A stretch of DNA of 64,000 nt from Terriglobia bacterium (GTDB lineage: Bacteria; Acidobacteriota; Terriglobia; 20CM-2-55-15): NCBI GenBank assembly GCA_965218585.1, contig CBDCLE010000015.1, forward strand, positions 1 to 64,000, given 5' to 3'. Under the pieces are notes generated by a model that ran no database searches, was not told the origin of the DNA, and saw nothing but the letters and a program-made list of their open reading frames with translations. Position 1 is the first letter of the stretch. Each line of letters opens with the position of its first letter. Of this stretch, positions 32,949-33,310 are shown one piece after another. The translations under genes and the position numbers were made by a program.

Positions 32949-33019
32949 CTTCTTACCTCGGCTTGGTGTCCTGCCGCTAACGATACGTTACAACATCTCG
33001 CCGATACGTTACAAGCGTC

Positions 33020-33048
33020 TTGACAAGCCAACCCTGCCTTCTTATTCT
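33020..33048 (+). promoter_or_regulatory. Sigma70-type promoter with upstream direct repeats
   Basis: TTGACA-17-TATTCT; gatacgttacaa x2 immediately upstream. Confidence 0.75.
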
Positions 33049-33053
33049 AGCCG

Positions 33054-33218
33054 ATGTAACGATCCACGGGAGACCCCGCTGAGCCGGGCTCCCTGCTGAA
33101 TACAATAACCTATTCAGCCGAGCAGAGGGTAGCTCCCTGCGCTCCGGGTGAATAAGCAGGACATCTCACGTTTCCGTGGATTGTTACAGAGCCCGGCACC
33201 CAAGACTGCCGGGCTCTC
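33054..33218 (+). ncRNA. Candidate structured RNA/leader in the IS1595 cargo
   Basis: 17 bp closing stem (33055-33071 with 33172-33188, two G-U), two internal hairpins, 10 bp 3' hairpin. Confidence 0.6.
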
Positions 33219-33310
33219 CAACAAAACAATTTGGGGAAACACATCATGACTTCGCAGAAACTCATTGCCGTGTTGATTGTTGAACCGCCCCGGGAATCCC
33301 GGAGACCGTT

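Follow-up and report, generated by a model that had tools for sequence, protein, structure and literature searches.

A promoter-driven structured RNA in an IS1595 transposon: a candidate translational leader switch of an sRNA-Xcc1-like clade

Introduction

What is a structured and apparently non-coding stretch of DNA doing between a promoter and a passenger gene inside a transposon? The question is raised by 64,000 nt of the genome of a Terriglobia bacterium (Acidobacteriota; GenBank assembly GCA_965218585.1, contig CBDCLE010000015.1, positions 1 to 64,000; this whole stretch is hereafter the window), in which an IS1595-type transposon carries a promoter, several mutually complementary segments and, behind them, the start of a gene. 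An earlier description made without database searches (the sequence-only reading) took these segments for a switch-like RNA, offered a riboswitch-like attenuator, a ribozyme or a transposon-borne non-coding RNA as its identity, and proposed covariation among homologues as the test.

By all the indications gathered here, a genuine structured RNA with its own promoter lies at the flagged place, ahead of a passenger gene of the IS1595 transposon, and it appears to be a member of an enlarged clade of sRNA-Xcc1-like leaders that spans many phyla, escapes the Rfam model of that family (RF02221) and is carried here by IS1595. We consider it probable, at about 0.6, that the RNA is a 5' leader acting in cis as a translational switch, its clade being part of an sRNA-Xcc1 superfamily. 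What stands of the sequence-only reading is the promoter-driven, non-coding structured RNA in IS1595, together with its switch-like character, which the comparative evidence supports and would sharpen to that of an anti-Shine-Dalgarno (anti-SD) leader; the attenuator is unlikely, and one of the inner hairpins is not conserved. Two features are added to it: the 3' arm of the outer stem is an anti-SD segment, and an IS3 element interrupts the downstream gene.

Promoter, segments and fold of the RNA

The module lies on the forward (+) strand and begins with a sigma-70-type promoter (33020-33048) made of a -35 box TTGACA (33020-33025), a 17-nt spacer and a -10 box TATTCT (33043-33048), one base to the left of where the sequence-only reading implied it; the four occurrences of GTTACA/TGTAAC that it reported are also present. 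From the position of the promoter, transcription is predicted to start at about 33055, the first base of segment a (33055-33071), which has an SD-like GGGAG as its last bases and serves as 5' arm of the outer stem, P1. P1 pairs 33055-33069 with 33174-33188 (15 bp, one G-U) and can be extended to 33055-33071 with 33172-33188 (17 bp, two G-U), the form in which it was first described. Within this stem lies segment W (CCCG, 33075-33078), the 5' strand of a small hairpin, P2, through which W can sequester segment X (gccgggctc, 33083-33091): the CGGG of X pairs with W in P2, and the whole of X is the 5' strand of helix B with X'.

The conserved core (33092-33160) consists of P3 (33092-33097 / 33155-33160), an internal loop with GAAUACAAUA (33098-33107) opposite GAAUA (33150-33154), P4 (33108-33110 / 33147-33149) and P5 (33120-33129 / 33135-33144, loop UAGCU). 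It is followed by segment b (33161-33188), a pyrimidine-rich linker J (33161-33173) continued by the 3' arm of P1 (33174-33188), which can take a or c as its partner. Immediately 3' of b stands X' (gagcccggc, 33189-33197), which pairs either with X in helix B or with X2 (gccgggctc, 33208-33216) in hairpin P6, the loop of which (33198-33207) opens with a conserved ACC; both copies of the 9-mer are fully complementary to X', as had been noted. Segment c, the ribosome-binding region (33225-33248), contains a stretch complementary to b (33225-33240), the SD sequence GGGGA (33233-33237) and the start codon (33246-33248), again where it had been placed before.

The minimum free energy (MFE) of the + strand is -88.8 kcal/mol against -57.5 +/- 5.1 kcal/mol in 200 shuffles (z -6.17), none of which folds as well. 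The - strand also folds well (z -5.65), so that folding energy alone cannot assign the strand; the assignment comes from the promoter, the G-U pairs and the homologues.

Homologues in many phyla and covariation of the fold

The region 32600-33600 has no Rfam match for this RNA, either at gathering thresholds or at E<=10. BLAST-type searches found the RNA in single copy in its own genome and in no plasmid, and gave only two partial matches among 41 relatives. One of these (G002) shares the inner 87 nt with the window RNA, its outer stem being wholly different in sequence; the other (G003) has an IS1595 element akin to that of the window, whose promoter region and repeated CGATACGTTACAA words it shares, without the RNA.

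A covariance model of the core (R1), built from the window and G002 with P1 deliberately excluded, matched 8 of the 35 genomes of the window's family. All nine places, which include the two model sources and amount to eight distinct sequences (L009 = L010), are flanked by a 15-19 bp stem of unrelated sequence; since R1 omits P1, the matches outside the model sources test this stem independently. The full model (R2), which includes P1, matched 10 of the 35 family genomes, among them four further copies in the window's own genome that are short variants without P5, and 20 of the 151 genomes of the window's class. For the wider search we took from the alignment a degenerate pattern that recalls 13 of 30 known members and for which about 10 chance matches are expected at uniform composition. 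Scanned over 185,579 species genomes it gave at least 92 stretches; the cross-phylum figures below rest on 80 of these loci, most of the scanned loci being from metagenome-assembled genomes. R2 matched 79 of the 80 over its full length, P1 included. Judging by record titles, the matches listed span Alpha- and Gammaproteobacteria, Nitrospirales, several orders of Acidobacteriota, Gemmatimonadota, Latescibacterota, Binatia, Rhodothermales, Spirochaetia and Chloroflexota, and each of five cross-phylum genomes holds three to nine copies. The RNA thus belongs to a large clade, spread over many bacterial phyla, that the Rfam model misses.

Some observations on this spread stand apart. The names among the records include Poriferihabitans and Spongiihabitans, which allude to sponges; we draw no claim of habitat from them. 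A link to phages was rejected, the same pattern having given a single match in viral contigs. One genome of the window's class (G151) has two pairs of copies lying within about 300 nt of each other (C1:4880814-4881175 and 3430168-3430481), one pair divergent and one tandem.

Covariation, the test proposed beforehand, is strongly positive. Across 81 cross-phylum matches, 94.2% of alignment cells are paired as against 68.6% in shuffled controls, none of 500 shuffles reaches the observed value, and sliding the partner by a single column leaves 46-47% paired. Changes on both sides of a pair occur in 17 of 17 pairs of P1, 6 of 6 of P3, 2 of 3 of P4 and 9 of 9 of P5, counts whose significance is overstated by the relatedness of the sequences. 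P1-P5 were part of the model to which this alignment was fitted; helix B was not, and it covaries as well: alignment pair 70/229 is CG in 40 sequences, UG in 24, GC in 5, UA in 4, AU in 3 and GU in 1 (2 unpaired), and pair 71/226 is GC in 42, AU in 13, GU in 3, CG and UA in 2 each and UG in 1 (16 unpaired). The 30 matches found without the pattern agree (for example, helix B pair 60/221 is CG in 12, UA in 9 and UG in 7). G-U pairs are frequent, one helix B pair (64/235) being U-G in 52 of 80 sequences, so that only an RNA of the + strand fits. The elements follow one another in this order, from 5' to 3': a, a linker with a conserved CCCG (W), X, P3, the internal loop, P4, an optional P5, J, the 3' arm of P1, X', ACC and X2. 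The family consensus is GYCGGGYY for X, RRCCCGRC for X', GAAUACAACA opposite GAAUA for the internal loop and UAGCU for the loop of P5; W is kept in 76-77 of 80 sequences. As in a riboswitch, a conserved structured domain with covariation stands in a 5' untranslated region (UTR).

Helix B crosses P1, so the two would form either a pseudoknot or alternative folds. The mutually exclusive pairings seen in the window are kept in its relatives, X with X' by covariation and X' with X2 in local folds. Less of the inner structure first proposed survives. The hairpin gctgaata/tattcagc is peculiar to the window copy, its homologues having GAAUACAACA there as a conserved internal-loop strand and not as a stem; the hairpin gagcagaggg/ccctgcgctc is conserved, as P5, and is dispensable, being absent from the short variants.

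Three other identities were considered for the conserved stretch and set aside. A coding role has no support in the reading frame, which is open in 79 of 108 members, a figure that is uninformative at such a G+C content, and the lengths are evenly distributed modulo 3 (37/36/35), which speaks against coding. A miniature inverted-repeat transposable element was rejected because its supposed terminal repeats are the variable part. The ends of P1 (GYNAAC...GUUNRC) recall the core sites of an integron attC; this was rejected by reasoning alone, with no search for integrases, on the grounds that the conserved part is the interior and that the G-U pairs and the promoter fix a single RNA strand.

Relation to sRNA-Xcc1

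That no family had been recognised was right for the window copy itself; a distant relative does exist in sRNA-Xcc1. Excerpts of the literature describe sRNA-Xcc1 as an 88-nt RNA on Northern blots with mapped ends (PMC2996969), and place it upstream of symE in a horizontally transferred integron cassette of Xanthomonas (bioRxiv 10.1101/2025.06.18.660453), in seven copies in Xylella (PMC12189769) and in one copy upstream of an open reading frame (ORF) in APSE phages (bioRxiv 10.1101/2020.03.17.996009).

By score, membership fails. Against a gathering score of 53 bits, the window gives no match to RF02221 at E<=10, and its short paralogues and relatives reach 28.6-38.0 bits (L036, 38.0; L043, 31.0; L021, 30.1; L024, 28.6). 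The RF02221 model exceeds its cut-off in none of the 151 genomes of the window's class, where R2 matches 20, and finds nothing in the five cross-phylum genomes; in the class of another genome (G165) it does so in 9 of 151, one of them flagged as unpublished. Conversely, R2 run on 23 loci that match RF02221 above or just below the cut-off gave four weak matches (22.5-24.2 bits, E 0.002-0.005).

The structures tell of a shared core. The closing helix of sRNA-Xcc1 (GgCcGGggG/CccCCgGcC) equals helix B, its first hairpin corresponds to P3, the internal loop AAUACAAuA opposite GAAua and the P4 CCC/GGG, and its 3' tail CACCC corresponds to the stretch after X'. The window has both the closing helix, X (33083-33091) with X' (33189-33197) over 9 bp, and the tail, ACC(C); it has the loop strands GAAUACAAUA and GAAUA, and an inner stem ACC/GGU with a 36-nt insertion containing P5 where RF02221 has a tetraloop. 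The short variants in the window's genome (L024) cap that inner stem with a tetraloop. The local second hairpin of RF02221 is not found in the window, where 33161-33188 pairs with the 5' end of the transcript instead. Taken together, the failed score argues against membership of RF02221 as modelled, and the shared core argues for distant homology.

Two observations belong beside this comparison. A sixth copy in the window's genome, without P1 (L142, G000:C12:70015-70108, - strand), scores 32.7 bits to RF02221 and is missed by R2; it resembles sRNA-Xcc1 proper and is followed by an ORF with a hydrophobic N-terminus. In the RF02221 loci above the cut-off (L153-L176), the complementary segment upstream is separated from the mapped sRNA start by a terminator-like hairpin with a U-run, which might mark where an upstream unit ends, act as an attenuator or reflect an overlap with the promoter.

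A candidate anti-SD leader switch

The contiguous strand made of b and X' (33161-33197) can pair either upstream, with a and X, or downstream, with X2 and c, and the 3' arm of P1 within it is complementary to the ribosome-binding site (RBS); for this reason we read the RNA as a cis-acting translational switch. The module would comprise its own promoter, a structured RNA of ~145 nt and an SD-led gene, travelling as a passenger of an IS1595 transposon, and the RNA would act on translation by exchanging two sets of partners. In State 1, b would be held by a (P1) and X' by X (helix B), which closes the three-way core and leaves the RBS free. In State 2, W would hold X (P2), X' would pair with X2 (P6) and b with c, the result being a single long hairpin with the SD inside it. 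The remaining parts of the model we infer: that the cell passes between the two states, that State 1 is the 'on' state, and that a ligand, a protein, temperature or loss of the 5' arm tips the balance.

The arrangement of promoter, RNA and gene is consistent across the clade. Sites resembling -35 and -10 boxes stand at a fixed distance before P1, with a best score of at least 8 of 12 in 69 of 110 matches; among 987 control positions, 22 score as high. Of 104 unique RNAs, 60 are followed on the same strand, 15-75 nt downstream, by an SD-led ORF of 60 aa or more that begins with ATG, at a median distance of 37 nt (interquartile range 34-45); the same holds for 117 of 2080 random positions. The encoded proteins look mostly exported: a hydrophobic stretch at the N-terminus is present in 58 of 84 downstream ORFs (69%) and in 58 of the 389 remaining long ORFs of these loci, and 17 of the 84 have a lipobox-like motif. 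These 84 ORFs match 35 Pfam families (for example, Trypsin 4, Reprolysin-type 4, CsgG 3, DUF4410 1 and OMP_b-brl 1).

In part of the clade, the complementarity of b to the RBS is specific to the gene that the RNA precedes. The window's a:b duplex is predicted at -26.1 kcal/mol and its b:c duplex (33161-33188 with 33225-33240, including the SD GGGGA) at -17.7 kcal/mol, a value equalled by 6 of 71 foreign RBS regions. Without the 5' arm, 33161-33250 folds into a single long hairpin, b:c stacked on P6, in which the SD is buried (-37.0 kcal/mol). Among 71 members of the clade, cognate b:c pairs average -17.4 and non-cognate pairs -13.8 kcal/mol; 19 cognate pairs rank in the best 5%, where 3.6 are expected, and 36 in the best 20%. 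The same relation recurs in RF02221 loci above the cut-off, where the segment after the first hairpin is complementary both to an upstream segment and to the downstream SD region: over 15 such loci, cognate and non-cognate energies are -20.9 and -14.9 kcal/mol for a:b and -17.4 and -11.7 kcal/mol for b:c, and the cognate partner beats all 14 others in 9 of the 15, for a:b and for b:c alike.

Other read-outs fared less well. Intrinsic termination was rejected as a general read-out: the window RNA has no U-rich tract after X', and such tracts follow X' in 7 and P6 in 4 of 108 members, a rarity of terminators that makes the attenuator of the sequence-only reading unlikely. A simpler translational scheme, in which a freed X2 sequesters the SD, was dropped as the main mechanism, since blocking X' changes predicted RBS accessibility by a median of -0.01.

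A number of points weigh against the switch as we have drawn it. P1 (-26.1 kcal/mol) is far stronger than b:c (-17.7 kcal/mol) and forms first, so that State 2 needs the 5' arm removed or occupied, and we identified no agent that would disable this arm or stabilise the core. The nested MFE structure contains P1 and P6 and leaves the SD free, at -88.8 kcal/mol as compared with -74.6 kcal/mol when the 5' arm is blocked. Blocking X' alone, with its median change of -0.01, lowers the predicted RBS accessibility in 20 and raises it in 5 of 71 members, and 52 of the 71 cognate b:c pairs lie outside the best 5%. P2 is conserved and shows no covariation in 80 sequences. P6 appears in 102 of 108 local folds and is partly compositional (82% with the real downstream sequence, 56% with a shuffled one); these MFE-based counts are used in place of an ungapped X'/X2 score, which barely exceeds shuffles (6.6 against 5.7 of 9). 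State 1, with P1 and helix B together, is a pseudoknot whose geometry has been argued by hand only. The downstream Pfam families listed have no metabolic theme and no common function beyond export, and so suggest no signal. The relatedness of the sequences inflates the apparent significance of all these counts. Finally, the title of Chen et al. 2011 presents sRNA-Xcc1 as trans-acting.

Alternative functions

That title leads to the foremost of the competing views, that the RNA is a stand-alone gene for a trans-acting sRNA, P6 being its 3' end or terminator and the ORF a mere neighbour in the cassette. It would account for the core held in common with RF02221, for the discrete 88-nt RNA with mapped ends described for sRNA-Xcc1, for the stable hairpin P6 that closes the conserved part and for the three to nine copies per genome. 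It is less easily squared with the scarcity of U-rich tracts, with an SD-led ORF so close (median 37 nt) that it leaves no space for a promoter of its own, and with the specific complementarity of b to the RBS of its own gene. We judge it unlikely as a complete account, and the two roles are compatible, since a processed leader could act in trans too.

Alternatively, the RNA could be a constitutive structural 5' UTR, a stabiliser or insulator whose 5' stem protects the messenger RNA and makes expression independent of context, with no switching. P1 does begin at the predicted first transcribed base, the nested MFE structure does leave the SD free and the module does work across many phyla and gene families; nevertheless, the invariant internal loop, a covarying helix B that crosses P1, the conserved competitors W and X2 and the gene-specific b:c complementarity would all go unexplained, and we hold this account to be quite improbable.

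The carrier itself suggests a third role, that the RNA serves IS1595 as a guide, a regulator of the transposase or a cofactor of transposition. The RNA does recur as a passenger of IS1595 transposons: within the fetched stretches (up to 8 kb) an IS1595 transposase is present in 15 of 33 class-level and 11 of 80 cross-phylum loci, and one adjoins all five copies in the window's genome. There, a 2.28-kb IS1595 transposon (L024, 92-2369 in G000:C2) is present in three identical copies, each with a transposase, a divergent 77-aa ORF, a short variant of the RNA and a gene for a DUF4410-type lipoprotein, which suggests recent activity. The same counts leave 69 of 80 cross-phylum loci without such a transposase; moreover, one genome that bears the RNA (G022) has no match to PF12762 at all, and the related element of G003 has the same promoter region and no RNA. 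The 23 RNA-transposase pairs have the module always 3' of the transposase gene and in either orientation (15 convergent, 8 tandem), as expected of a passenger. IS1595 uses a DDE transposase, for which we know of no RNA partner, and the titles of the literature on IS1595 riboswitches, passenger genes and sponge symbionts, titles being all that was surveyed, mention no such RNA. We hold a role in transposition to be very improbable. Least credible of all is a self-cleaving ribozyme that processes the 5' UTR, to which the compact junction, the invariant unpaired GAAUACAACA / GAAUA and the pseudoknot-like topology might point, since no Rfam ribozyme matches the window at E<=10 or 12 other loci at E<=1 and nothing marks a cleavage site.

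The carrier transposon and its surroundings

The IS1595-type transposon spans 32744-36629, between 24-nt terminal inverted repeats (32744-32767 / 36606-36629) and an 8-bp direct repeat, TTTTTAAT (32736-32743 / 36630-36637); the target duplication of the IS1595 family is 8 bp. Its transposase (35611-36558, - strand) has the DDE_Tnp_IS1595 domain (PF12762, E 2.4e-40) and an N-terminal zinc ribbon (PF12760, E 1.2e-8) and is convergent with the module of RNA and passenger, the RNA standing 311 nt inward from the left end. The IS1595 setting given in the sequence-only reading is borne out by the inverted repeats, the direct repeat TTTTTAAT and the transposase.

A nested element of the IS3 family (33281-34593, - strand) lies outside the RNA. 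It has 39-nt inverted repeats, a TGT duplication (33278-33280 / 34594-34596), orfA (34216-34551), orfB (33311-34222) and an ALIL frameshift pseudoknot (34145-34261, Rfam match 100.6 bits), and it interrupts the passenger ORF in codon 12. The first 11 2/3 codons (MTSQKLIAVLIV, 33246-33280, + strand) are cut off from the remainder (34598-34849, + strand, 83 aa), where the hydrophobic N-terminus carries on, and the RNA now precedes a 22-codon stub. The broken ORF is 37% identical (E 9e-11) to the ORF behind the same RNA in another locus (L032). The IS3 insertion has broken the gene that the window RNA would control.

Between the broken gene and the transposase lie further small passenger ORFs, at 34851-35027, 35040-35204 and 35486-35632 (+) and at 35149-35361 (-); the second of these is homologous to an ORF that comes straight after the promoter in the G003 element (L002), which lacks the RNA. 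Two direct copies of CGATACGTTACAA stand just 5' of the -35 box (32981-33015; also at 1511-1547 in L002), and an inverted partial copy overlaps the transcript start. The copies are kept in the G003 element and have the look of an operator; the regulator might be the product of a basic 52-aa ORF, divergent and without a Pfam match, at 32790-32948 (-). Elsewhere in the window's genome, a fourth, partial copy of the 2.28-kb transposon (L028) is 99.7% identical to the other three and has a frameshifted transposase.

Farther out in the window, a tricorn-protease-like gene (28923-32220, -) with Tricorn_C1, PDZ_Tricorn, S41 and PD40 domains is distributed over three or more successive ORFs (664, 163 and 242 aa) and is possibly a pseudogene or frameshifted. 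At 17817-17942 (-), 42 residues are left of an IS1595 transposase, and a signal recognition particle (SRP) RNA (6748-6845) and a tRNA (6874-6960) are adjacent at 6748-6960 (-).

Implications and comparison with known systems

Few structured RNAs outside the catalogued families combine such covariation with a spread across phyla and several copies per genome, and the Rfam model in its present form passes this clade over (0 against 20 of the 151 class genomes). If the reading as a leader holds, IS1595 transposons would move complete regulated modules, consisting of a promoter, a leader and an exported protein, between distant bacteria. The three-way complementarity further points to a cis-acting element of translational control in what has been catalogued as a virulence-linked sRNA family acting in trans, and the many annotated RF02221 matches in plant pathogens, phages and integrons would then have to be read differently. 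In its widest form, which we offer tentatively and think rather less likely than not to hold, the whole sRNA-Xcc1 superfamily, the published 'trans-acting sRNA' included, would be a cis translational switch with an orphan riboswitch-like aptamer core, borne on cassettes. Promoter, RNA and gene would then form a plug-and-play regulated cassette that IS1595 transposons and integrons move among at least nine phylum-level groups, with the present clade preferentially controlling exported proteins.

Beyond their common core, this clade and sRNA-Xcc1 both reside on mobile elements, stand upstream of a gene and display the three-way complementarity of a, b and c. They differ in that the clade has a 15-19 bp stem to the extreme 5' end in place of the local second hairpin of sRNA-Xcc1, no terminator-like hairpin between a and X and, in most members, P5 as an additional hairpin; as a rule it lacks the 3' U-tract, and the competitor X2 follows. 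The downstream genes here are mostly those of exported proteins and not symE-like as in sRNA-Xcc1, and the carrier is an IS1595 transposon, whereas sRNA-Xcc1 is borne by integrons, transposons and plasmids in Xanthomonas campestris.

Set beside translational riboswitches and anti-SD/anti-anti-SD leader switches, a comparison that rests on general knowledge of the class, the RNA has the same logic, a closing strand that pairs either within the 5' domain or with the ribosome-binding region, as well as a covarying conserved core, several copies per genome and varied genes behind it. It departs from them in that its downstream genes share no pathway and that the SD-exposed state is the more stable by nearest-neighbour energy. 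With the ALIL pseudoknot of IS3 (34145-34261), the omega RNAs of IS200/IS605 and the bridge RNAs of IS110 it has in common that a structured RNA lies inside an insertion sequence; those RNAs serve the transposase, by frameshifting or guiding, whereas the window-type RNA fronts a passenger gene, mostly with no transposase in the locus.

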